A DNA stretch of 64,000 bases from an uncultured Acidimicrobiia bacterium (GTDB lineage: Bacteria > Actinomycetota > Acidimicrobiia > Acidimicrobiales > Ilumatobacteraceae). Where the stretch lies: assembly GCA_963827075.1 (NCBI GenBank), contig CAWGZN010000002.1:54099-118098 (forward strand), given 5' to 3'. Positions 2,890 to 63,377 of the stretch are shown piece after piece (within the stretch, counting starts at the first letter, position 1; each line of letters starts with the position of its first letter). The position numbers and the translations under genes are program-made. A model generated the notes under the pieces. The model saw nothing but the letters and a program-made list of their open reading frames with translations. It had not been told where the DNA came from and searched no databases.

Positions 2890-3564
2890 GTGGGCCGACG
2901 GCCCGACGTCGAGCGGCGCCAGGAGCTGCTCGACCGCGTGGTCGCCTATCTCGCCGGCCACGGCCTGGCCGACGTCTCGCTGCGCCCGATGGCACGCGAG
3001 CTCGGCGTCAGCGTGAACGCCCTCGTCCATCACTTCGGCGCCAAGGAGGAGCTGGTGGTCGCAGCACTGCGACGGGCGGCCGACGTCCAGGCCGACCTCG
3101 AGCAGCGCTGGCTCGCCCGCCAGCCCGGGCTGACGGAGGCCGAGCTGTTGCGCCGGTGGTGGCGGTGGATCAACGCGTCGCCGGCGAACCTCGCGGTCGT
3201 GCGCCTCGGCATCGAGGCCGCCGCCCTCGACGCCACGACGAGCGGGTTGCCCGGGGCGGTGCGGGCCGACCAGATCGCCCCGTGGCGGGCGAACATCGAG
3301 CAGCGCCTCGTCGCGGAGGGGATGGACCCGGACGAGGCCGCGCTCGAGGCGCCGTTGGTCAAGGCGATGTTCACCGGCCTCGTCGTGGACCTCCTCGCCA
3401 CCGGCGAGCGGCGCCGGCTCACCGCCTCGCTCGAGGCCGGCGTCGCCCGCCTCGAACGCCGACGTCCATCCGAGTGTCTGACGCCGACCGAGTGTCTCGT
3501 GAGGGAGAGTCCCTCGGCAGACACTCCGACGGCGGGAAACACTCGGATGGCTACAGGTCTTTGA
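2890..3564 (+). CDS. TetR-family transcriptional regulator
   Basis: In-frame GTG 6 nt after the dehydrogenase stop. HTH region LRPMARELGVSVNALVHHFGAKEEL. The last ~30 codons are read out of repeat element A1, so the true C-terminus is uncertain. Confidence 0.75.
   Translation: MGRRPDVERRQELLDRVVAYLAGHGLADVSLRPMARELGVSVNALVHHFGAKEELVVAALRRAADVQADLEQRWLARQPGLTEAELLRRWWRWINASPANLAVVRLGIEAAALDATTSGLPGAVRADQIAPWRANIEQRLVAEGMDPDEAALEAPLVKAMFTGLVVDLLATGERRRLTASLEAGVARLERRRPSECLTPTECLVRESPSADTPTAGNTRMATGL
3466..3550. repeat. Family A nested-palindrome element, copy A1 (85 bp)
   Basis: CCATCCGAGTGTCTGACGCCGACCGAGTGTCTCGTGAGGGAG...CGGCAGACACTCCGACGGCGGGAAACACTCGGATGG. The core CCGAGTGTCT occurs twice direct and twice inverted. 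Related copies lie at 26773, 30226 and 45651. Confidence 0.85.
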
Positions 3565-19833: not shown

Positions 19834-19885
19834 CGTTCTGTCGGTCGGAAAGCGCCGAATGGCGCGTGTTCCGACCGACAGAACG
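19834..19885. repeat. Family B palindromic element, copy B1
   Basis: CGTTCTGTCGGTCGGAA-N18-TTCCGACCGACAGAACG (perfect 17-nt arms). The loop holds a second hairpin, GCGCCgaatGGCGC. It fills the gap between two convergent stops. Confidence 0.85.
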
Positions 19886-19887
19886 CT

Positions 19888-21838
19888 TCAGCGGCGGGCG
19901 AACCAGTCCAATGACGTCGGATCCGCCAGGGATTCGCGGGACGCCGCCTCGTCCGGCGCGACGCCGGAGAGGATGCGCTTGACCGGCACCTCGAGCTTCT
20001 TGCCCGAGAGCGTGCGGGGGACCACGGGCACCGCCTCGATCGCGTCGGGGACGTGGCGCGGCGACAAGTCACGGCGCAGGGCAGCACCGATTCGTGTGGC
20101 GAGGTCGTCGTCGAGGCTCACGCCGGGCGCCAGCGCGACGAACAGGACGAGCCGGCCGCCGTCCCCGTCGTCGCGCCCGTCCTCGAGATGAACCACCAGG
20201 CTGTCGACGATCTCCTCGAACCCCTCCACCACGGCGTAGAAGTCACTCGTCCCGAGCCGCACCCCACCGCGGTTCAGCGTGGCGTCGGAGCGACCACTGA
20301 TCACGCACGCCCCGTCATCGGTGAACGTCACCCAGTCGCCGTGCCGCCACACGCCCGGGAACTCGTCGAAGTACGCCGCCCGGTACCTCGCTCCGTCGTC
20401 GTCACCCCAGAATCCGACGGGCATCGACGGCATCGGCGCGGTGAGCACGAGCTCGCCGGTCACGCCCGGCGGGCACGGCCAGCCGTCGGGCGTGAACGCC
20501 TCGACGGCGCAGCCGAGCATCCGGCAGCTGATCTCACCCGCCCGCACGGGAACGAGCGGCGACGAGCCGACGAACGCCGTGCACACGTCGGTGCCTCCGC
20601 TGATCGACGACACCGGCACTCCGACGTGCTCGTGGACCCAGCGAAACCCGGCCGCCGGCAACGGCGCGCCGGTCGAGCCGACCCAGCGGAGCCGGGATCG
20701 CGGCGGACGCACGCCGGCCTTGCGGCACGCCATGAGGAACGGTGCCGACACACCGAAGACCGTGATGCCGGTCTCGGCGGCGACGTCCCACAACGTGTCC
20801 AATGTCGGCGCGGCCGGGTCCCCGTCGAAGAGCACGATCGTGGCGCCCGTGAGCAGGCCCGAGACGAGGTAGTTCCACATCATCCAGCCGGTGGTCGTGA
20901 ACCAGAAGAAGCGCTCGCCGGGCCCGACGTCCTGGTGCAACCGGAGCACCTTGAGGTGCTCGGCCACGATGCCGCCGTGGCCGTGGACGATCGCCTTGGG
21001 CACGCCGGTGGTCCCGGAGCTGAACAGCACGTACAGCGGATGGGCGGCGGACACCGGGTGCGGCTCCGCCGCCGGCGGTCCGTCCGCGACGAGCTCGGTC
21101 CAGCTCACCGCGCTGACGCCGTTCGGCAGCGCCGGCGGATGCGCCGCCTCGTCCAGATAGCCGATCGTCACGACACTCCGCAGCGTCGGCAGGGCGGAGG
21201 CGATCGCGCCGACCTCGTCCCGCCGGTCGATCGTGCGGCTGCCGTAGCGGTACCCGTCGATGGCGACGAGCACGACGGGCTCGATCTGGGCGAATCGGTC
21301 GATCACGGCCCGCCGGCCGAACTCGGGCGCGCAGCTCGCCCACACCGCACCGAGCGACGCCGCGGCGAGGAACGCCACGAGCGTCTCGGGGATGTTCGGC
21401 GCGTAGGCGACGACGCGGTCGCCCGCCCCCACCCCGAGCCGGCGCAGGCCCTCCGCCGCCGCGCCCACCTGCGCGGCCAGCTCGGCCCAGGTCAGCTCGC
21501 TCGGGCCGCGGGTCTGGCTGCGGGCGACGACGGCGACGCCGTCCGGGTCAGCCGCGGCCGGCGCCAGGGCGTGCTCGGTGTAGTTGAGCGTGCCGCCGGG
21601 GAACCACGACACCCCGGGCATCTCACTGCCCGTCACAGATCGCGCGAGGCGCCTCGTGCCAGCGCATCCCGGTGAAGTCGGTGGCCGCGCGCCAGAACGA
21701 CTCACGTTCGGCGACCGACCACGCATGCAGCGACGCGTAGTCGGTGAACCCCTGCGCGGTGGCGAACCGCCCCGCCGCGGTCGCCGTCCACACGTCGGCC
21801 GGTGGCGTCCACAGCACCTCGCCCCGGTCGGTGTTCAC
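19888..21838 (-). pseudogene. Acetoacetyl-CoA synthetase (acetoacetate-CoA ligase); one frame switch
   Basis: 612-aa main ORF with AMP-binding motifs (LFSSGTTGVPKAIVH, WMMWNY). The N-terminal 65 aa (VNTDRGEVLWTPPADVW...ESFWRAATDFTGMRWHE) are in another frame, with a switch near 21635. The GTGA overlap with the upstream gene is at 21835-21838. Confidence 0.85.
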
Positions 21839-24659: not shown

Positions 24660-24783
24660 GGTTCTGATTGCGATTCACCCTCGCGGGTGACCGATTGCGC
24701 GCGGAACAATCGCGAGCACCGAACCACCGTCGGTTCTCCCGCGCGATCTGCGTCAGGGGTGACGGTGAATCGCAATCAGAACC
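24660..24783. repeat. Palindromic element D (124 bp, 20-bp perfect terminal inverted repeats)
   Basis: GGTTCTGATTGCGATTCACC ... GGTGAATCGCAATCAGAACC. The internal core GATTGCG/CGCAATC is reiterated. It lies between the galK stop and the acyltransferase start. Confidence 0.85.
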
Positions 24784-26011: not shown

Positions 26012-27203
26012 CGGCGAGCTCCCGCAGCCGGGTGGCGATGCGCTCCGGGGTGGTGTCGTTCACCCACGCCCCCATCGCCGACTCCGAGCCGGCGAGGTAC
26101 TTGAGCTTCCGCGGTGCCCGCATGATCGAGAACATGTCGAGGTGCAGCCGGCACAGGTCACGGCCCTCGCCGACGGGCGCCTGATGCCACGCGGCGATGT
26201 ACGGGACGGCGGCGACCTTCGGGTAGAACTCGTCGAACCGGCGCAGCAGCTCGGGATAGAGGCGGGCGAGCTCGTCGCGCTCCCCGTCGTCGAGGGCGGC
26301 GAGATCGGCCACGTGGCGATGGGGCACGACGCGGAGCTCCACTGGCCACCGCGCCGCGACGGGGACGTACGCCGTCCAGTGCTCGCCACGCGCCACGACC
26401 CGGGTGCCGGCCGCGACCTCCTCGGCGAGGAGATCGCCGAGCAGATCGCCCCCACCCCGCCCGCGATGCTGCTCGGCCTGCCGCAGCATCCCGGCCGTGC
26501 GCGGCACGACGAACGGGTAGGCGTAGATCTGACCGTGGGGATGGTGGAGGGTGACGCCGATCTCGCGGCCCCGGTTCTCGAACACCGACACCTGGGCGAC
26601 CCCCGGCCGGGCGGACAGCTCGGCCGTGCGATCGGCCCACGCCTCGATCACGGTGCGCACCCGCCCGACGTCGAGCTCGGCGAAGTGGGTGTCGTGGTCG
26701 CTCGTGAAGCACACGACCTCACACCGTCCGACGGCGGGCATGTCGGCCGTCTGCGCATCCGAGGGTTTACGGTCATCCGAGTGCGTCGTCCGGGACCCTC
26801 CCGCAGTAGACCCTCGGTCGGACTGAGACACTCGGATGGGGAGGCCGGCGAAGGACGGGAAGCGGTTCTCGAACACCGCCACGTCGTAGTCGTCGGCGGG
26901 GATCTCGGTCGGCTCGCGCCCGGGCCGGGTCGGGCACAGCGGGCACAGGTCGGCCGGCGGGAGATGGGTGCGGTCCATGCGGTGGGTCGCGAACGCGATC
27001 CACTCCCCGGACAGCTCGTCGAAGCGCATCCGGCTGTCGCTGGCATGCGGCTCGAGGGGACGGCGGTCGTCGAACGATCGTTGCGCCCGGCCGGACACGT
27101 ACGGCTCGGAGTCGTCGAAGTAGATCAGCTCCCGGCCGTCGGCGAGGTGGCCGCTCGACCGGCGGACCCGAGCCTTCCGGTGACGGGCGCGCGTCGCCGT
27201 CAT
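26001..27203 (-). CDS. galT: Galactose-1-phosphate uridylyltransferase
   Basis: Open 400-aa ORF with CPLCP, FENRFPSF, GRCEVVCFTSDH and HHPHGQIYAYPF motifs. It carries repeat A2 in-frame between FENRFPSF and GRCEVVCF. Confidence 0.9.
   Translation of the reverse strand: MTATRARHRKARVRRSSGHLADGRELIYFDDSEPYVSGRAQRSFDDRRPLEPHASDSRMRFDELSGEWIAFATHRMDRTHLPPADLCPLCPTRPGREPTEIPADDYDVAVFENRFPSFAGLPIRVSQSDRGSTAGGSRTTHSDDRKPSDAQTADMPAVGRCEVVCFTSDHDTHFAELDVGRVRTVIEAWADRTAELSARPGVAQVSVFENRGREIGVTLHHPHGQIYAYPFVVPRTAGMLRQAEQHRGRGGGDLLGDLLAEEVAAGTRVVARGEHWTAYVPVAARWPVELRVVPHRHVADLAALDDGERDELARLYPELLRRFDEFYPKVAAVPYIAAWHQAPVGEGRDLCRLHLDMFSIMRAPRKLKYLAGSESAMGAWVNDTTPERIATRLRELAGGS
26773..26839. repeat. Family A element, copy A2 (shorter, 67 bp), inside galT coding sequence
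   Basis: TCATCCGAGTGCGTCGTCCGGGACCCTCCCGCAGTAGACCCTCGGTCGGACTGAGACACTCGGATGG. It has the same termini and GGGA/CCCTC centre as A1, A3 and A4. Confidence 0.8.
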
Positions 27204-30225: not shown

Positions 30226-30309
30226 CATCCGAGTGTCTTCAGCCAATCGAGTGTCTGGTGAGGGAGGGACCCGCACAACGCACTCCGATGGCACAGAGAC
30301 ACTCGGGTG
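30226..30309. repeat. Family A element, copy A3 (84 bp)
   Basis: CATCCGAGTGTCTTCAGCCAATCGAGTGTCTGGTGAGGGAGGGACCCGCACAACGCACTCCGATGGCACAGAGACACTCGGGTG. It fills the spacer between the carboxyltransferase stop and the HMG-CoA lyase start. Confidence 0.85.
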
Positions 30310-30313
30310 AACG

Positions 30314-32089
30314 TCAGACCGGGGGGATCCCATGTCGACGGTCCGCGAAATGTCGGTTCCTTGTTCGCGCCAGGGCGAGCCGGCGGATCAGCTCGTCACG
30401 CAGCCGGGACGGGTCGATCACGGCGTCGATCACGAGCTCCGACGCCAGGCGGAGCAGGTCGACGTCGGTCTCGTACAACGCCCGCTGCTCGGCGACGAAC
30501 TGCTGGCGCTCGTCGGGGTCCTCGATCGCCGCGATCTTGTTCGCGTAGACGGCGTTGATCGCGGCCTCCGGCCCCATCACGGCGATGCGGGCCGTCGGCA
30601 GGGCGATCGTGGCGTCGGGCTCGAACGCCGGACCTGACATCGCGTACAAGCCGGCGCCGTACGCCTTGCGCACGATCACCGAGAACTTCGGCACCGTCGC
30701 CTCGCTCACCGCCGTCACCATCTTCGCCCCATGGCGGATGATCCCCTGGCGCTCGACGGCGGAACCGATCATGAAGCCGGGCACGTCGGCGAGGAAGATC
30801 AGCGGGAGATTGAACGCGTCGCAGCACCAGATGAAGCGGGCGGCCTTGTCGGCCGAGTCGACGAACAGGGTGCCGGCGAGATGGGCCGAGTTGTTGGCGA
30901 CGATGCCGACCGGCTGACCGGCGAGGCGCCCCAATCCGACGATCAGCTCGCGGGCGTAGAGCGGCTTGATCTCGAAGAAGCTGTGCCGGTCGACGATCCC
31001 GTCGATCATGACGTGCATGTCGAACGGCACCCGCTCGTCGGCCGGCACGACGTCGTCGGCGAGCTCGACCTCGGGCGGTTCGCTCTCGTACACCGGCGGT
31101 TCGTGGCGCCATGACCGCGGGAAGTACGTCAGGTACGCCCGGGCCTGGTCGATCGCGTCGTGGTCGTCGGTGGCGAGGTTGTCGGCGCAGCCCGACTGCG
31201 TCACGTGCATGCGGGCGCGATTCATGACGTGCATGTCGAACGGCACCCGCTCGTCGGCCGGCACGACGTCGTCGGCGAGCTCGACCTCCGGCGGCTCGCT
31301 CTCGTACACCGGCGGCTCGTGACGCCACGAGCGCGGGAAGTACGTGAGGTACGCCCGGGCCTGGTCGATCGCGTCGTGGTCGTCGGTGGCGAGGTTGTCG
31401 GCGCAGCCCGACTGCGTCACGTGCATGCGGGCGCCACCCATCTCCTCGAGCGTCGTGATCTCCCCGACGACCATCTCGGCCATCCGCGGCGAACCGAGGT
31501 ACATCGAGGCGTTGCCGTCGACCATGAACACGACGTCGCAGAACGACGGCACGTACGCCCCGCCGGCCGCCGACGGGCCGAACAGACAACACACCTGCGG
31601 GACCTGGCCGGACAGCCGCACCTGGTTGTAGAAGATCCGGCCGGCCCCGCGCCGCCCCGGGAACAGCTGGACCTGATCGGTCAACCGGGCGCCCGCCGAA
31701 TCGACGAGCCACACGATCGGGACCTGCTCGGCCAGCGCGGCCTCGGTCGCCCGCACCATCTTCTCGACCGTGCGGGCGCCCCACGATCCGGCCTTCACCA
31801 TCGGGTCGTTGGCGACCACGACGGCCGGCACGCCGTCGATCGTGCCCCGGCCGGTCACGACCCCGTCGGCCGGCAGCCCAGTCGCCATGGCGTTGGCCAG
31901 CACGGCGTCCTCGACGAACGACCCGGTGTCGAGGAGCAGGTCGATGCGCTCGCGGGCGGTCAGCTTGCCCTGGCCGCGGATCTTCTCCAGGGCCCGCTCG
32001 TCGGGCGTGAAGGCGCGTTGCACGGCCGCCTGGATCTGCTCGCGCATCGCCGCCAACGGTACGCGATCCTTCGTTCTGTCGGTCGCCAT
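30314..32089 (-). CDS. Acyl-CoA carboxylase carboxyltransferase (beta) subunit, methylcrotonyl/propionyl-CoA type, with internal 72-aa duplication
   Basis: Open 591-aa ORF with carboxyltransferase motifs (KLTARERIDLLLD, SAGARL, FGPSAAGGAY, FLADVPGFM.G...E..GIIRHGAKM). The residues MHVTQSGC...FDMHVMNRAR occur twice in tandem. The first 7 codons are read from repeat B3, so the start may instead be the ATG at 32047. Confidence 0.88.
   Translation of the reverse strand: MATDRTKDRVPLAAMREQIQAAVQRAFTPDERALEKIRGQGKLTARERIDLLLDTGSFVEDAVLANAMATGLPADGVVTGRGTIDGVPAVVVANDPMVKAGSWGARTVEKMVRATEAALAEQVPIVWLVDSAGARLTDQVQLFPGRRGAGRIFYNQVRLSGQVPQVCCLFGPSAAGGAYVPSFCDVVFMVDGNASMYLGSPRMAEMVVGEITTLEEMGGARMHVTQSGCADNLATDDHDAIDQARAYLTYFPRSWRHEPPVYESEPPEVELADDVVPADERVPFDMHVMNRARMHVTQSGCADNLATDDHDAIDQARAYLTYFPRSWRHEPPVYESEPPEVELADDVVPADERVPFDMHVMIDGIVDRHSFFEIKPLYARELIVGLGRLAGQPVGIVANNSAHLAGTLFVDSADKAARFIWCCDAFNLPLIFLADVPGFMIGSAVERQGIIRHGAKMVTAVSEATVPKFSVIVRKAYGAGLYAMSGPAFEPDATIALPTARIAVMGPEAAINAVYANKIAAIEDPDERQQFVAEQRALYETDVDLLRLASELVIDAVIDPSRLRDELIRRLALARTRNRHFADRRHGIPPV
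31007..31438. repeat. Tandem direct duplication, 2 x 216 bp, in-frame within the carboxyltransferase gene
   Basis: 31007-31222 and 31223-31438 align base for base. They differ at 31073, 31079, 31100, 31106, 31112, 31115 and 31130, plus the last few junction bases. ACGTGCATG occurs at both unit boundaries. Confidence 0.95.
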
Positions 32090-32123
32090 CGACCGAATCC
32101 GGCCGCTCCCGACCGACAGAACG
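32072..32123. repeat. Family B palindromic element, copy B3
   Basis: CGTTCTGTCGGTCG-N24-CGACCGACAGAACG. It lies between the FAH-family stop (32126) and the carboxyltransferase, and it contains the annotated ATG at 32087-32089. Confidence 0.85.
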
Positions 32124-32125
32124 GG

Positions 32126-32960
32126 TCAGCGGGTCACGCGGTTGACCAGCGTCCCGACCGCTTCGATCGTGATGCGGATCTCGTCCCCGACCTCGAGCGT
32201 GAACTCGTCCTCCGGTACGACGCCGGTGCCGGTCATCAGGTAGCAGCCGTTGGGAAACTCGTCCTCGCGGAACAGCCACTCGACCAGCGACGGCAGCGGC
32301 CGCCGGATGCGACTGATCGACGTCGACCCCGCGAACACCGACTGCCCGTCCCGCTCGATGGCCATCGCGATCGTGGTGTCGGGCGGCGGCAGCTCGGCGC
32401 TGACGATCAGCCGGGGACCGAGGGCTGCCGAGCCGGCGTAGATCTTGGCCTGCGGCAGGTACAGCGGGTTCTCGCCCTCGATGTCGCGGCTCGACATGTC
32501 GTTGCCGATCGTGTAGCCGAAGATGGCGCCCGCCGAGTTGACGGCGAGCGTCAGCTCCGGCTCGGGGACGTTCCAAGCCGAGTCGCCGCGGATGCGCACG
32601 TCCCCTCCCGGCGCGGCGACGCGGTGGGGCATCGACTTGAGGAACAGCTCGGGGCGCTCGGCGTCGTACACGCGGTCGTAGAACGAGCCACCGCCCGCGT
32701 CGCTCGACTCCTCGATGCGCGCCTCGCGGCTGCGCTCGTAGGTCACGCCGGCCGCCCACACCTCCTGGGACGCGATCGGGGCGAGCATCGACGACGGGAC
32801 GCCCGCGATCTCCTCACCGGCGGCGAACGCCTCGCGCGCCGCGCCGACTGGATCCGGCGACCGGAACAGATCGTCGAGCGTGAAGTCGCGCACGCGCCCG
32901 GACGACCCGACCCCCGTCCTCGATCACGAGGCCGTCAGCCGTGAGCGTGAGCGCGGTCAA
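32126..32960 (-). pseudogene. Fumarylacetoacetate hydrolase (FAH)-family protein; one frame switch near the 5' end
   Basis: The 255-aa ORF shows family features (VWAAGVTYERS, PELFLK, EPELTLAV, GYTIGNDMSSRD, MTGTG). The likely N-terminus LTALTLTADGLVIEDGG is in another frame from a TTG at 32960, with a TTGA overlap onto the permease stop. Confidence 0.75.
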
Positions 32961-45650: not shown

Positions 45651-45733
45651 CACCCGAGTGTCTTCGTGCATCGGAGTGCGTTGTGAGGGGCCTTCCCGCA
45701 CGCGGCACTCGGTTGCGACAAGACACTCGGATG
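45651..45733. repeat. Family A element, copy A4 (83 bp)
   Basis: CACCCGAGTGTCTTCGTGCATCGGAGTGCGTTGTGAGGGGCCTTCCCGCACGCGGCACTCGGTTGCGACAAGACACTCGGATG. It begins 2 nt after a TAA stop, between convergent genes. Confidence 0.85.
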
Positions 45734-45751
45734 TGGTGATGACGAGAGGAA

Positions 45752-46637: not shown

Positions 46638-46709
46638 TGCCCCCCCAGGGGCTCGAACCCTGAACCAATGGATTAAAAGTCCACTGCTCTACCGTTGAGC
46701 TAGAGGGGC
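46638..46709 (-). tRNA. tRNA-Lys (anticodon UUU)
   Basis: Manual cloverleaf on the minus strand. Acceptor GCCCCTC/GGGGGGC, D arm GCTC-AACGGTA-GAGC, anticodon arm GTGGA-CTTTTAA-TCCAT, T arm CAGGG-TTCGAGC-CCCTG, discriminator A. No CCA is encoded. Length is 72 nt. Confidence 0.9.
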
Positions 46710-49863: not shown

Positions 49864-49944
49864 CCAATCTGGGCGCGATCGTTCTCACGGACCGATCTGG
49901 GCGCGGTTATTTCCACCTCCCGAGAAGAATCGCGCCCAGATGGG
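49864..49944. repeat. Family C palindromic element, copy C1 (81 bp)
   Basis: CCAATCTGGGCGCGATCGTTCTCACGGACCGATCTGGGCGCGGTTATTTCCACCTCCCGAGAAGAATCGCGCCCAGATGGG. The core ATCTGGGCGCG occurs twice direct and once inverted. Copies lie at 60731 and 61764, with a fragment at 15385-15400. Confidence 0.85.
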
Positions 49945-60707: not shown

Positions 60708-60730
60708 CCTAACGGCCCACCCCTCCCTCC

Positions 60731-60808
60731 CCCATCTGGGCGCGATTCCTTCTCACGGACCGATCTGGGCGGCAATTCTTCTCAGCTGTTGAGAACATCC
60801 GCGCCCGG
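60731..60808. repeat. Family C element, copy C2 (right arm degenerate)
   Basis: CCCATCTGGGCGCGATTCCTTCTCACGGACCGATCTGGGCGGCAATTCTTCTCAGCTGTTGAGAACATCCGCGCCCGG. It overlaps the last ~18 codons and the stop of the DUF559 gene. Confidence 0.8.
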
Positions 60809-61721
60809 AACGAGGTGCGGAGCCCACCGACGGAGGATCCGCACGGATGCGTTCGGCCTCCCTGGCCGCGTGCCGGGTGATCCCGCGATAGCTGAAGCGG
60901 ACGACGATCCACCCCATCGCGGTGAGCTCGTTGTCCCGCACCCGGTCCTTCTCGAACTGCCACTTGTTGCGACCGTGCGTCTCCCAGCCGTCGCACTCGA
61001 GGATGACGATCGAATCGATGAAACGGAAGTCGACCTCGTAGCCGCTGACGATCGGATGGAACTCCACTGGCGGCAGCCGATAGGTCGCCACCAGCTTGCG
61101 CATGGCCGGCTCGAGCACGCTGTCGACCGGCTTGCCGTCGATGACCCATTCGTCGAGCGCATCTCGCAACGCAGGAACGCCGGCCCGGCCGCGCCGTGAA
61201 TGGCGGATGACGGCGCGGCGCAGCGCGACCGGGGATGCCAGTCCGTTCGTGATGACGTGGCCCACCGCGCCCGGCACCGAGTCGCAATCGAGGGCGCCGA
61301 GATCACAGAGCGTGCGGAGGATGTTCGTGGCCCGGATGCCCTTCCTGAGCACGGGCTTGAGATCGAGGTGGTCGCGAGGACGGTGGATGCACGCGCCCTC
61401 GATCGTCGCTCGGCGAGTGCGCTCGACCAGCATGACGTCGGGCGATTCACCCTCGGGACGTGGAATGCCCCAGAGGTGGGCCGCAGAGCGGTGCGACGCC
61501 ATCGCCCGGTCGCCGGCTGCGAGAACAGCTGCAGCGATGGTCTGCTCCACCGTGATCTCGGCGCCGTACATGCGAGCGACGTTCTGGTGCACCCGCTCGA
61601 GCGACCCATTGTCCAGGGCGCGGTACCACGTCGCCGTCGAGATGCCGAGCCGGCGGGCTGCTGCCCGGGTCACCAGTCCGTGGTGATCGTGGGCGTATTC
61701 GTCCAAACGTTGAAGGTCCAT
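60753..61721 (-). CDS. DUF559 (Vsr-like endonuclease fold) protein with N-terminal AbiEi-like HTH domain
   Basis: MDLQRLDEYAHDHHGLVTRAAARRLGISTATWYRALDNGSLERV (AbiEi_4-like) ... YEVDFRFIDSIVILECDGWETHG...DRVRDNELTAMGWIVVRFSY (DUF559 core). The ORF is open to 61790, but that start lies inside repeat C3. The C-terminal tail is encoded by repeat C2. Confidence 0.75.
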   Translation of the reverse strand: MDLQRLDEYAHDHHGLVTRAAARRLGISTATWYRALDNGSLERVHQNVARMYGAEITVEQTIAAAVLAAGDRAMASHRSAAHLWGIPRPEGESPDVMLVERTRRATIEGACIHRPRDHLDLKPVLRKGIRATNILRTLCDLGALDCDSVPGAVGHVITNGLASPVALRRAVIRHSRRGRAGVPALRDALDEWVIDGKPVDSVLEPAMRKLVATYRLPPVEFHPIVSGYEVDFRFIDSIVILECDGWETHGRNKWQFEKDRVRDNELTAMGWIVVRFSYRGITRHAAREAERIRADPPSVGSAPRSGRGCSQQLRRIAAQIGP

Positions 61722-61763
61722 ACCCCCTGGGGGGTGCGCACCGCCGAAAGGGGAAAGCGCACT

Positions 61764-61842
61764 CCATCTGGGCGCAGAATTTCTCGACATCTGGAAAGAA
61801 CCGCGCCCAGATCGGTCCGTGAGAAGGATCGCGCCCAGATCG
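61764..61842. repeat. Family C element, copy C3 (inverted relative to C1/C2)
   Basis: The reverse complement reads GATCTGGGCGCGATCCTTCTCACGGACCGATCTGGGCGCGGTTCTTTCCAGATGTCGAGAAATTCTGCGCCCAGATGG and aligns with C1 over its whole length. Confidence 0.85.
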
Positions 61843-61853
61843 TGGGTGGGGGG

Positions 61854-63377
61854 TCAGTTGCGGGCGTTGTAGTCGGCGATGAGGGCGTCGGACTGGTCGG
61901 CCGCGTCGGCGAGGGACGACGCCACGTCGGCGCCGTTGAAGATCGCCGCCACGGCGGAGGCAGTCACCGAACGCACCTCGCGCAGCGGTCCGATCACCGG
62001 CCCGACGGCGGCGAAGTCGTCGGCGCCGGCGACGACCTGGTCGTAGGACACCTTGAACCGCGGGTCGTCCCGATAGGTCGCGCGCAGCGGGTCGAGCCGC
62101 AACGCGCCCTGGTTCACCGGCGCGTAGCCGGACCGGGCCGCCCACTCCGACTGCGTCTCGGCCTTGACGAGGTACGTGATGAAGTCCCACGCCGCCGCGA
62201 CTTCTTCGTCCCCCTTGCCGGCGGTGAGGTAGAGCGCACCGCCACCGACGGTCGCCGATTCGGTCTCGCCCGGCCCCGGCATCGGACCGACCCCCACGTC
62301 GGCGGGGGTGAGTCCGGGGATCAGCCCCCCGCCGAGGGCGTCCAAAACGGTGCCCAACGCGGCGGACGTGGCGATCGCCATCGCCGCCGGGGCGTCTGGG
62401 TCGGCGAGCTTGAGCAGAGCGTCCTGCCCCTGGGGGTTGTCGCCCACCGTGACCGCCAACCCGTCGTTGATCAGCGACTGCACGTACGTCATCACCTCGA
62501 CCCCGAACGGCCCGGCGTACAGCACCCGCGTCGCCGGCGCCAGGCGACCGTTGCCGTTGTCGGCGTACGGCTCGCCGGCGCGGGCGAACCACTGCTCGAG
62601 GAACCACCCACCGCCCGAATCAACGCCAGAGTCGAGGGCGATCCCCGTCCCCGCCGCGCCCGAGTCGACGAGCGCCTGGGACGTCGCCCGCAGCTGCTCG
62701 AGCGACACCGGCGAGACATCGGGATCGAGGCCGGCCTCCTCGAACATCTTGCGGTTGTAGTAGAGGACGGGGTTGCTGACGTTGAACGGCATGCCCCACT
62801 GCACCCCCTCGGTCTGGTAGGCGAGGAGCGCCCGGGGAAGCAGCGGCGTCGTGTCGTAGTCGCTCGACTCGATGCATGCTCCGACCGGGATGACCGAGTC
62901 GGAGTCGGCGAGCTGCTGGACCGTGTACTCGGGGAAGATCGCCAGCCCGGGCCGGCCGCCCTGCCGGCTCTGCGTGAACTTGTCGATCACCTCCCGGTAC
63001 CCGCCCTGGTTCTCGATGCTGACTCGCACCTTGTCCTGACTGGCGTTGTAGGCGTCGGTCAGTTCGGTCAGCACCCCCTCGAGGACGCCGCTCAAGCCGT
63101 ACCACAGCGTGATCTCCACCGGGTCGGTGACACCATCGAGGGCGTCGACCGGGCACGGCGGCAGCGCGTCGAGCGGCGTCGTGGTCGTGGTGGCGATCGT
63201 CGGCGGGCTGGTGGGCGGCAGCGTCTGCCCGGGCACCGTGCTCGGCGGCGGTCCGGCGACGGTCGTCGCGGTCGTCGTGACCGGTACCTCCTCGTTGCCC
63301 GCCTGCAGGATCGACTTCCCCGACGAACACGCGGCGAGCAAGACGCACGCGAGCAGCGCCCGCCGGACCGCGCTCAA
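61854..63377 (-). CDS. ABC transporter substrate-binding lipoprotein, family 1 (sugar/glycerol-3-phosphate type)
   Basis: Intact 507 aa with an LLACVLLAACSSG lipobox and a Thr/Pro-rich linker. The SBP_bac_1-type body includes ITLWYGLSG..., GMPFNVSNPVLYYNRKMFEEAGLDP. It overlaps the upstream permease stop. Confidence 0.85.
   Translation of the reverse strand: MSAVRRALLACVLLAACSSGKSILQAGNEEVPVTTTATTVAGPPPSTVPGQTLPPTSPPTIATTTTTPLDALPPCPVDALDGVTDPVEITLWYGLSGVLEGVLTELTDAYNASQDKVRVSIENQGGYREVIDKFTQSRQGGRPGLAIFPEYTVQQLADSDSVIPVGACIESSDYDTTPLLPRALLAYQTEGVQWGMPFNVSNPVLYYNRKMFEEAGLDPDVSPVSLEQLRATSQALVDSGAAGTGIALDSGVDSGGGWFLEQWFARAGEPYADNGNGRLAPATRVLYAGPFGVEVMTYVQSLINDGLAVTVGDNPQGQDALLKLADPDAPAAMAIATSAALGTVLDALGGGLIPGLTPADVGVGPMPGPGETESATVGGGALYLTAGKGDEEVAAAWDFITYLVKAETQSEWAARSGYAPVNQGALRLDPLRATYRDDPRFKVSYDQVVAGADDFAAVGPVIGPLREVRSVTASAVAAIFNGADVASSLADAADQSDALIADYNARN

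Follow-up and report, generated by a model that had tools for sequence, protein, structure and literature searches.

The window analysed here is a stretch of 64,000 nucleotides from an uncultured bacterium of the family Ilumatobacteraceae (Acidimicrobiia, Actinomycetota; GenBank CAWGZN010000002.1, positions 54,099 to 118,098). Between a gene for a solute-binding protein (SBP) and a gene for a peptidyl-prolyl isomerase (PPIase, a cyclophilin) it contains a single gene, a fusion of an AbiEi-type DNA-binding region with a Vsr/DUF559 nuclease domain, which is framed by two inverted copies (C2 and C3) of a palindromic repeat designated family C. The reading towards which we lean is that this vertically inherited fusion gene and its two inverted cognate 75-nt palindromic elements form a module similar to the REPIN/RAYT systems (REPtrons) of Proteobacteria. 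The features of the window that belong to the module or to family C are as follows.

60716-60733, plus strand: C-rich tract outside C2, towards the PPIase gene, CCCACCCCTCCCTCCCCC; the gene strand reads GGGGGAGGGAGGGGTGGG
60734-60810, plus strand: downstream element C2, 77 nt, '>><' on the plus strand, which is '><<' in gene orientation
60782-61721, minus strand: AbiEi-type + Vsr/DUF559 nuclease fusion gene, 312 aa once one base is removed at about 60839-60840
60839-60840, minus strand: apparent 1-nt insertion, CC on the plus and GG on the gene strand; the frame shifts after ...EAERIRA
61744-61758, minus strand: conserved box TTYCCnnTTC, read by eye, GCTTTCCCCTTTCGG, between C3 and the start codon
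61766-61840, minus strand: upstream element C3, 75 nt, '>><' on the gene strand
61841-61853, minus strand: C-rich tract outside C3, towards the SBP gene, whose stop codon (61854-61856) it immediately follows; the gene strand reads CCCCCCACCCACG
49867-49941, plus strand: solo copy C1, the same element as C2 and C3

The fusion gene and its flanking elements

Family-C elements of the window are 75-77 nt long and consist of three units of about 21 nt (consensus ATCTGGGCGCGATCCTTCTCA; repeat period 28-29 nt) in the order '>><', two direct and one inverted, the inverted unit pairing with either unit 2 or unit 1 to form a hairpin. The ends of the elements are sharp (ATCTGGGCGC...GCGCCCAGAT), and the 21-nt unit has four matches in the window at three or fewer mismatches, as against none in 100 shuffles. 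An earlier note, made from the letters of the window, had placed C2 and C3 correctly to within 2-3 nt and had described them as inverted with the same end outward, which is borne out by a perfect 25-nt inverted core (60747-60771 and 61804-61828). The module as a whole, '>><' gene '><<', extends from 60734 to 61840 (1,107 bp) with the two-unit sides of both elements pointing outward. C3 is located 13 nt past the SBP stop codon and 44 nt ahead of the conserved ATG; the inner unit of C2 corresponds to 60790-60810, and 35 nt separate C2 from the PPIase start (60698). The solo copy C1 is preceded at 28 nt by the stop codon of an 806-aa open reading frame (ORF) and followed at 36 nt by an enoyl-CoA hydratase gene. 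The C-rich tracts that the same note had reported outside both elements are real and represent a family-wide trait, since 26-27 of 35 elements have C at positions -6/-5.

Several other identities of the elements have been considered and rejected. In an Rfam scan no structured-RNA model matched the family-C elements; a weak RAGATH-5 match (E 0.76) is located outside them, and the only feature of the window to reach the gathering score is a tRNA gene (46638-46709, minus strand). Fold z-scores were strong for C1 only, and the elements were not retained as structured RNA or riboswitches. Neither a classical intrinsic terminator nor a sigma-70 promoter was detected in them. Their tandem units with constant 7-nt linkers and without spacers do not agree with CRISPR, their termini are unlike integron attC cores, and no integrase is present. 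A plasmid or mobile-island origin was dismissed as no homologue was found among 72,556 plasmids and the GC content shows no anomaly.

The single enclosed gene had been taken to encode an AbiEi-type helix-turn-helix joined to a Vsr-fold DUF559 nuclease, and this has been confirmed by Pfam matches to AbiEi_4 in the N-terminal and DUF559/MTES_1575 in the C-terminal part, with PADLOC AbiEi profiles spanning residues 4-180. The AbiEi-type winged helix-turn-helix and a second domain occupy approximately residues 1-200 and the nuclease approximately residues 215-300. An AlphaFold model, built from 64 sequences for P0001, a protein 90% identical to that of the window (mean pLDDT 90.4), was used for fold searches. 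Residues ~1-200 matched the AbiEi antitoxin 6y8q (E 2.7e-6) and Rv2827c (1zel), and the last ~95 residues matched the catalytic domain of I-Bth0305I (3r3p; E 6.7e-4, TM 0.74) and, more weakly, the DUF559 protein 3hrl and Vsr. Among 64 homologues, residues D231, E242, D244 and H249 (as counted from the conserved start) do not vary. Pfam, PADLOC and the fold search gave AbiEi and DUF559/Vsr and did not find a Y1 (HUH) transposase of the IS200/IS605 type. No AbiEii/DUF1814 toxin gene adjoins the gene, whose neighbours are the SBP and cyclophilin genes, so its identification as an AbiE defence system was rejected; the immediate neighbours include no methyltransferase either. The protein family comprises 193 clusters (50% identity) at E <= 1e-30 and 5,146 at E <= 1e-10, many members being annotated merely as 'very-short-patch-repair endonuclease' or 'AbiEi antitoxin'.

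All orthologues begin at the ATG at 61721. The ATG of the longest ORF (61788-61790) sits in the hairpin loop of C3, so the earlier placement of a start within C3 was right for the longest ORF but not for the conserved start. Orthologues end with RWAPHLLPGADVLNS and a stop codon in the hairpin loop. In the window copy the frameshift deletes the conserved RWAP C-terminal tail and the frame continues to a stop at 60753-60755; the orthologue-type tail is encoded in the other frame and ends at TGA 60782-60784 in the C2 loop. With the frame restored, the 312-aa protein ends with ILRRWAPHLVPGADVLNS as in orthologues. The idea that C2 supplies the C-terminal tail and stop was therefore based on an artefact of the 1-nt frameshift, but it holds in another form, as the last ~8 codons of intact orthologues are encoded by the inner unit of the downstream element. 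A real mutation and an assembly error are indistinguishable here, and the window copy may be a pseudogene.

By eye the TTYCCnnTTC box can be made out at almost every homologue locus, including loci whose flanking repeats are unrelated, and an ACCC..GGGGG(T)ATG leader downstream of it, likewise read by eye, is also common to lineages that differ in their repeats. Box and leader together are a candidate promoter/leader signal and ribosome-binding site. The leader region (61722-61765, and its equivalents in L001-L078) also holds a C-run/G-run pair, ACCCCCCAGGGGGT in the window, which could sequester the ribosome-binding site.

The module in relatives and the dispersed solo elements

Homologues of 57-90% identity, nearly all of ~306-312 aa, are abundant in Ilumatobacteraceae/Acidimicrobiia metagenomes. 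In relatives at 57-82% protein identity the gene and both repeats occupy the same SBP-PPIase interval. The orientation is that of the window in L001-L005, the P0018 contig and L043 (order SBP, gene, cyclophilin, short-chain dehydrogenase/reductase (SDR), aminotransferase), and family-C elements are present on both flanks in every such relative with flanking DNA available. Between the window gene and L001, L004 and L005 the dN/dS ratio is 0.11-0.17 at dS 0.9-1.2 (rows with L043 are set aside, a one-codon register error having made them invalid), and despite this divergence the outer repeat unit is identical among those genomes. Conserved synteny together with such ratios indicates that the module is not a recent insertion. 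At three loci the upstream side carries an array of tandem units:

L001, 5742-5954: seven tandem 28-nt units, protein P0006
L002, 5714-5954: eight tandem 28-nt units, protein P0006
L003, 668-796: four tandem 28-nt units, protein P0006

The identity of the P0006 protein behind four, seven or eight units means that the array copy number varies fast.

Intervals devoid of the module were located by searching with SBP instead of the gene, and they can be set beside the occupied one:

L079, empty: 54-nt gap from SBP stop to PPIase start, TGACTCGCGATCCCCCC-AGAT-GGGGGAGCGG...GTTAGGGTGC
L082, empty: 65-nt gap from SBP stop to PPIase start, ...GCGCCCGCCC-ATCT-GGGGAGCGGG...GTTAGGGTCC
Window, occupied: TGACCCCCCACCCACG, then ATCTGGGCGC...module...GCGCCCAGAT, then GGGGGAGGGAGGGGTGGGCCGTTAGGGTGCC

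For comparison with CCCCCC AGAT GGGGGAG in L079 and GCCC ATCT GGGGAG in L082, the window reads TGACCCCCCACCCACG-module-GGGGGAGGG, and its gene-strand flank GGGGGAGGGAGGGGTGGG matches the G-run adjoining the 4-nt core in both empty sites. A C-run and a G-run thus enclose the site, which holds either the entire module or none of it. Target-site duplications, a possible sign of mobility according to the earlier note, were looked for and no direct one was found at the junctions of the module or of solo elements; no recombinase gene is adjacent to the module. In L044, L050, L056, L077 and L083 the module is flipped within the same interval and the outer flanks are unchanged. The two orientations interleave with phylogeny: L083 is inverted (70% SBP identity), L043 direct (68%) and L044 inverted (64%). 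L080 (6558-7154) and L081 (3630-4226) carry an inverted 198-aa AbiEi-domain remnant without the nuclease domain, and MIP and AbrB-family genes are inserted there ahead of the PPIase gene; this site looks like a rearrangement hot spot. Comparison of the interval among relatives, the check to which the mobile-unit idea had been tied, has shown no full-length gene without repeats and no repeats without the gene, the truncated remnant of L080/L081 being the sole gene-bearing exception.

A metagenome scan provided 33 further homologue loci at 40-75% identity, in contexts that include the following:

L046-L048: upstream of ndk
L062, L067, L070-L072: upstream of a ychF-like GTPase gene
L045, L058: beside an SDR gene; probably also L054, L055 and L059, in the other orientation

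The '>><' gene '><<' layout recurs at other loci (L045-L049, L054-L072), and at almost all loci one hairpin repeat precedes the ATG by 35-50 nt and a second one is placed at or just past the stop codon. The inverted similarity of the upstream and downstream flanks reaches z > 9 against shuffles in 23 of the 29 loci with both flanks available; L064, L065 and L075 have low flank scores yet show hairpins by eye. The repeats differ between lineages (TCTGGGCGCG..TTCTCA, TCTGGGCGGG..GTCCCG, TCTGGGCGCC..CGCCA, TCTCGGTCGG, TTCTGGTCCG, ATCTGTGTCGA, TCTCGTCGCG and others), and the variants track predicted recognition-helix motifs of the proteins (S-x-x-T-W-Y-R-A, S-R-x-x-W-Y, E-R-S/T-W-Y, S-x-S-A-W-K/H/Q). 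These comparisons show that gene and repeats move, go missing and invert as one, that every protein lineage possesses a repeat sequence of its own, and that the gene is under purifying selection with its nuclease-motif residues invariant.

A strict two-unit pattern, the single pattern with which solo copy number was counted, was found at 37 loci in eight Acidimicrobiia metagenome-assembled genomes (MAGs) among 185,579 species representatives, one MAG alone accounting for 16 of the loci. No homologue of the gene is present within the 8-kb locus at any of the 37, and the window contains no paralogue; the multi-copy state presumed for DUF559/AbiEi-like genes was thus not encountered in either. 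The solos are 74-75 nt long, mostly '>><' with two cases of '>><<'. They are always located at the 3' end of a gene, and none is placed between divergent genes. For about two thirds of them the two-unit side starts 7-44 nt past a stop codon, as judged by a crude gene finder based on GC content at third codon positions. A strong orientation bias relative to the upstream gene was rejected, the counts of 15 versus 9 in tandem contexts being unconvincing. The hairpin is retained in all 34 distinct copies and the central 4-5 nt of the unit need not pair, so that the unit looks bipartite, like a protein site.

Which variant the solos carry depends on the genome. The GATCC..TTCTCA variant is common to JBKOUV and the window. 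Solos of CAWJQF, CAVZDR and CAVUCK have the GGACG..TTCTCA variant, which also flanks the L059-type gene, and the L043 solo carries the TTCCCA variant, as do the gene flanks of that genome. The solos are old: in L043 a decayed copy occupies the orthologue of the C1 site, and several pairs of MAGs have solo insertions in common, L016/L025 and L023/L038 among them sharing their flanks. At ~3930-3960 of L030 a unit of another variant (ATCTGGGCGGGAATCGTCGCA) was noticed ~35 nt from a family-C solo, which means that more than one variant can coexist in one genome.

Past the units, the flanks of the module are complementary (7.56 of 11 as against 6.75, p = 0.002), whereas the complementarity of solo flanks does not exceed that of permuted pairs (p = 0.66). 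This difference fits arm-to-arm recombination, which would also yield flips. Insertion into pre-existing locus-specific hairpins was rejected as a general rule because of the solo flanks, though the module flanks are complementary.

Other repeats were seen in the window. A second palindromic family of ~85 nt, unrelated in sequence to family C, has four apparently intergenic copies (3467-3552, 26756-26841, 30226-30292 and 45651-45736) built of two direct and two inverted CATCCGAGTGTCT-type units. A third hairpin family (19834-19894 and 32072-32132; CGTTCTGTCGGTCGG...CCGACCGACAGAACG) has an arm resembling the TCTCGGTCGG-type repeats that flank the distant homologues L060, L061, L063 and L069, so a second gene-repeat pair elsewhere in the genome is possible. 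There is also a large imperfect palindrome at 24660-24783, with 53-nt arms (GGTTCTGATTGCGATTCACC...) 75% complementary and 18 nt apart, and a probably coding tandem duplication at 31006-31437 (216 nt twice in perfect register, 96% identity).

Weighing the explanations

The REPtrons of Proteobacteria consist of a single-copy, vertically inherited gene framed by inverted palindromic repeats that are also dispersed extragenically, each gene lineage having its own repeat family and persisting for long periods (PMC3116915; bioRxiv 10.1101/2021.07.10.451892). The module resembles them in that its gene is flanked by inverted copies of its repeats and the same repeats are dispersed extragenically (C1, the 37 solos in 8 MAGs, the L043 solo); its synteny is conserved, and neither the window nor the solo loci hold a paralogue. 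The two-sided lineage-specific association in several contexts, the behaviour as a unit, the dispersed solos and the apparently vertical inheritance under purifying selection match the defining features of RAYT/REPIN (PMC3116915). The differences concern the enzyme, which is an AbiEi-type binder with a Vsr/PD-(D/E)xK-type nuclease in place of the IS200/IS605-type Y1 HUH transposase, the element, whose 75 nt form a '>><' block of three units sharply bounded by ATCT...AGAT, the copy numbers, which are dozens at most versus hundreds, and the host, Acidimicrobiia of the Actinomycetota versus Proteobacteria.

In this reading the protein would bind, and probably cut, its cognate repeats. The winged helix would recognize the bipartite unit (ATCTGGGCGC, 4-5 nt, TTCTCA), and binding at the upstream units would repress the gene itself, in the manner of AbiEi at its promoter repeats. 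The nuclease may nick or cut at or near the conserved ATCT/AGAT termini, and repair of the cut could copy, homogenise or occasionally relocate elements and, rarely, the whole module. Solos might be non-autonomous copies moved in trans; alternatively each could be the footprint of a module whose gene was lost via recombination between the direct units of its arms, a process from which precisely the observed '>><' and '>><<' forms would follow. The repeated flips would be accounted for by recombination between the inverted arms.

A number of observations weigh against a REPtron-like system. Solos are kept at orthologous sites across ~77% nucleotide identity, so their current mobility must be low, and their density is low as well (a single one in the 64 kb of the window, whereas L044, L045 and L049, loci of 20 kb, have none). 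In no single genome were the gene and many solos both seen; CAVUCK has solos, but its SBP-PPIase site is empty and no copy of the gene could be located. At 4-6 homologue loci the flank similarity is weak, or absent on one side, L048 and L070 being clear cases without a clear repeat on one or both flanks. The match between helix motifs and repeat variants is confounded by phylogeny, and the window copy is frameshifted.

The most serious competitor, which we nevertheless hold to be unlikely, is a host DNA-binding factor for which the dispersed elements are functional 3'-end sites (terminator, roadblock or nucleoid) with nothing mobile today, the copies round its own gene providing autoregulation and insulation and the nuclease domain being inactive or otherwise used. 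It accounts for the location of solos at gene 3' ends, commonly a few nucleotides to tens of nucleotides past the stop, for their persistence at orthologous sites in diverged genomes and for the apparently vertical inheritance of the gene under purifying selection; moreover, autoregulation by binding to inverted repeats in the promoter of their own gene is known for AbiEi-family proteins (PMC7319586). The N-terminal ~200 residues share the two-domain fold with AbiEi of the type IV AbiE toxin-antitoxin systems (S. agalactiae AbiEi, M. tuberculosis Rv2827c), and in the module, too, repeats are located just upstream of the gene. The module differs from AbiE in the fused nuclease domain that stands in place of an adjoining AbiEii toxin gene, and in its repeats on both sides of the gene and elsewhere in the genome. 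A mere host factor is difficult to reconcile with nuclease-motif residues invariant in 64 sequences, with a module that has moved, as at least five contexts, both orientations and empty sites attest, and with the symmetrical framing of the gene in 23 of 29 loci, which is not expected of regulator sites.

That the whole module is an autonomous homing-type or transposon-like element, its nuclease cutting a palindromic C-run/G-run target and the solos being only footprints of former modules that lost the gene, is the reading of the earlier note in sharper form, and we rate it as quite improbable. The empty sites do retain the C-run, 4-nt core and G-run exactly at the module position, the module flanks are complementary, and deletion between direct arm units would predict both solo forms. 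The nearest solved relative of the nuclease domain is a homing endonuclease, I-Bth0305I (PMC3239194), with which it shares the fold; the acidic and histidine motif residues are conserved, as in the Vsr-like 'EDxHD' homing endonucleases and DUF559 proteins, and as with homing endonuclease genes there are occupied (the window and others) and empty (L079, L082) sites in relatives. Unlike I-Bth0305I-type genes, however, the module lies outside any intron or intein, does not belong to a phage, has long inverted repeats on its flanks, keeps its synteny and, where examination was possible, appears to be single-copy; unlike Vsr, it has no dcm-type methyltransferase partner among its immediate neighbours. 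The absence of the gene from all 37 solo loci, solo flanks without locus-specific complementarity, synteny across dS ~1 and the lack of target-site duplication also speak against such an element. With miniature inverted-repeat transposable elements and composite transposons the module shares small multi-copy elements with terminal inverted repeats, two inverted copies of which frame a gene, but it has neither a target-site duplication nor a DDE transposase, the framed gene is the presumed actor and not cargo, and the elements are stable at orthologous sites. The composite or terminal-inverted-repeat-bounded mobile unit envisaged in the earlier note consequently survives only in part: gene and repeats do behave as one unit, present, absent or flipped together and found at other loci, but this unit is neither recent nor frequently hopping, as its synteny and the purifying selection on it attest, and the elements that flank it belong to a dispersed solo family instead of being ends private to it. 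For these reasons a REPtron-like system of gene and cognate repeats fits better than a composite transposon.

An invertible, phase-variable cassette, in which the 75-nt inverted arms flip the gene or a promoter relative to the SBP operon or PPIase gene, would agree with the interleaved orientations of L083, L043 and L044 in one interval and with arms that appear homogenised past the units. We regard it as very improbable, since no recombinase gene adjoins, the solos, other contexts and lineage-specific repeats are left unexplained, and flips may be a mere by-product of any long inverted repeat. Coincidental insertion of two solos at the 3' ends of the SBP and DUF559 genes is in keeping with the habitual location of the family, yet it is effectively refuted by the recurrence of the two-sided layout with matching lineage-specific sequences in 23 of 29 loci and several unrelated contexts, and by solos that occur only about once per tens of kb.

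A possible second class of REP-associated enzymes

Full-text literature searches turned up no paper in which DUF559, AbiEi_4 or MTES_1575 proteins are connected with repeats, be they flanking or dispersed. If the REPtron-like reading is correct, AbiEi-Vsr fusions could, as a tentative proposal, represent a second, independently evolved class of REP-associated enzymes, site-specific nucleases that maintain and spread their own palindromic elements by PD-(D/E)xK-type chemistry. Such a class would be found in Acidimicrobiia and perhaps extend to the larger AbiEi/DUF559 fusion family of Actinomycetota. The reading is directly testable because the protein and the 21-nt candidate site are both defined, and the lineage-specific site variants constitute a natural series for studying the co-evolution of recognition. 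Vertically persisting partnerships between a gene and its cognate repeats have so far been known essentially from RAYT/REPIN; a second example with an unrelated enzyme would, if true, imply that this lifestyle evolved more than once and would provide the first functional lead for a very large unexplained set of proteins, the 5,146 clusters of the family.

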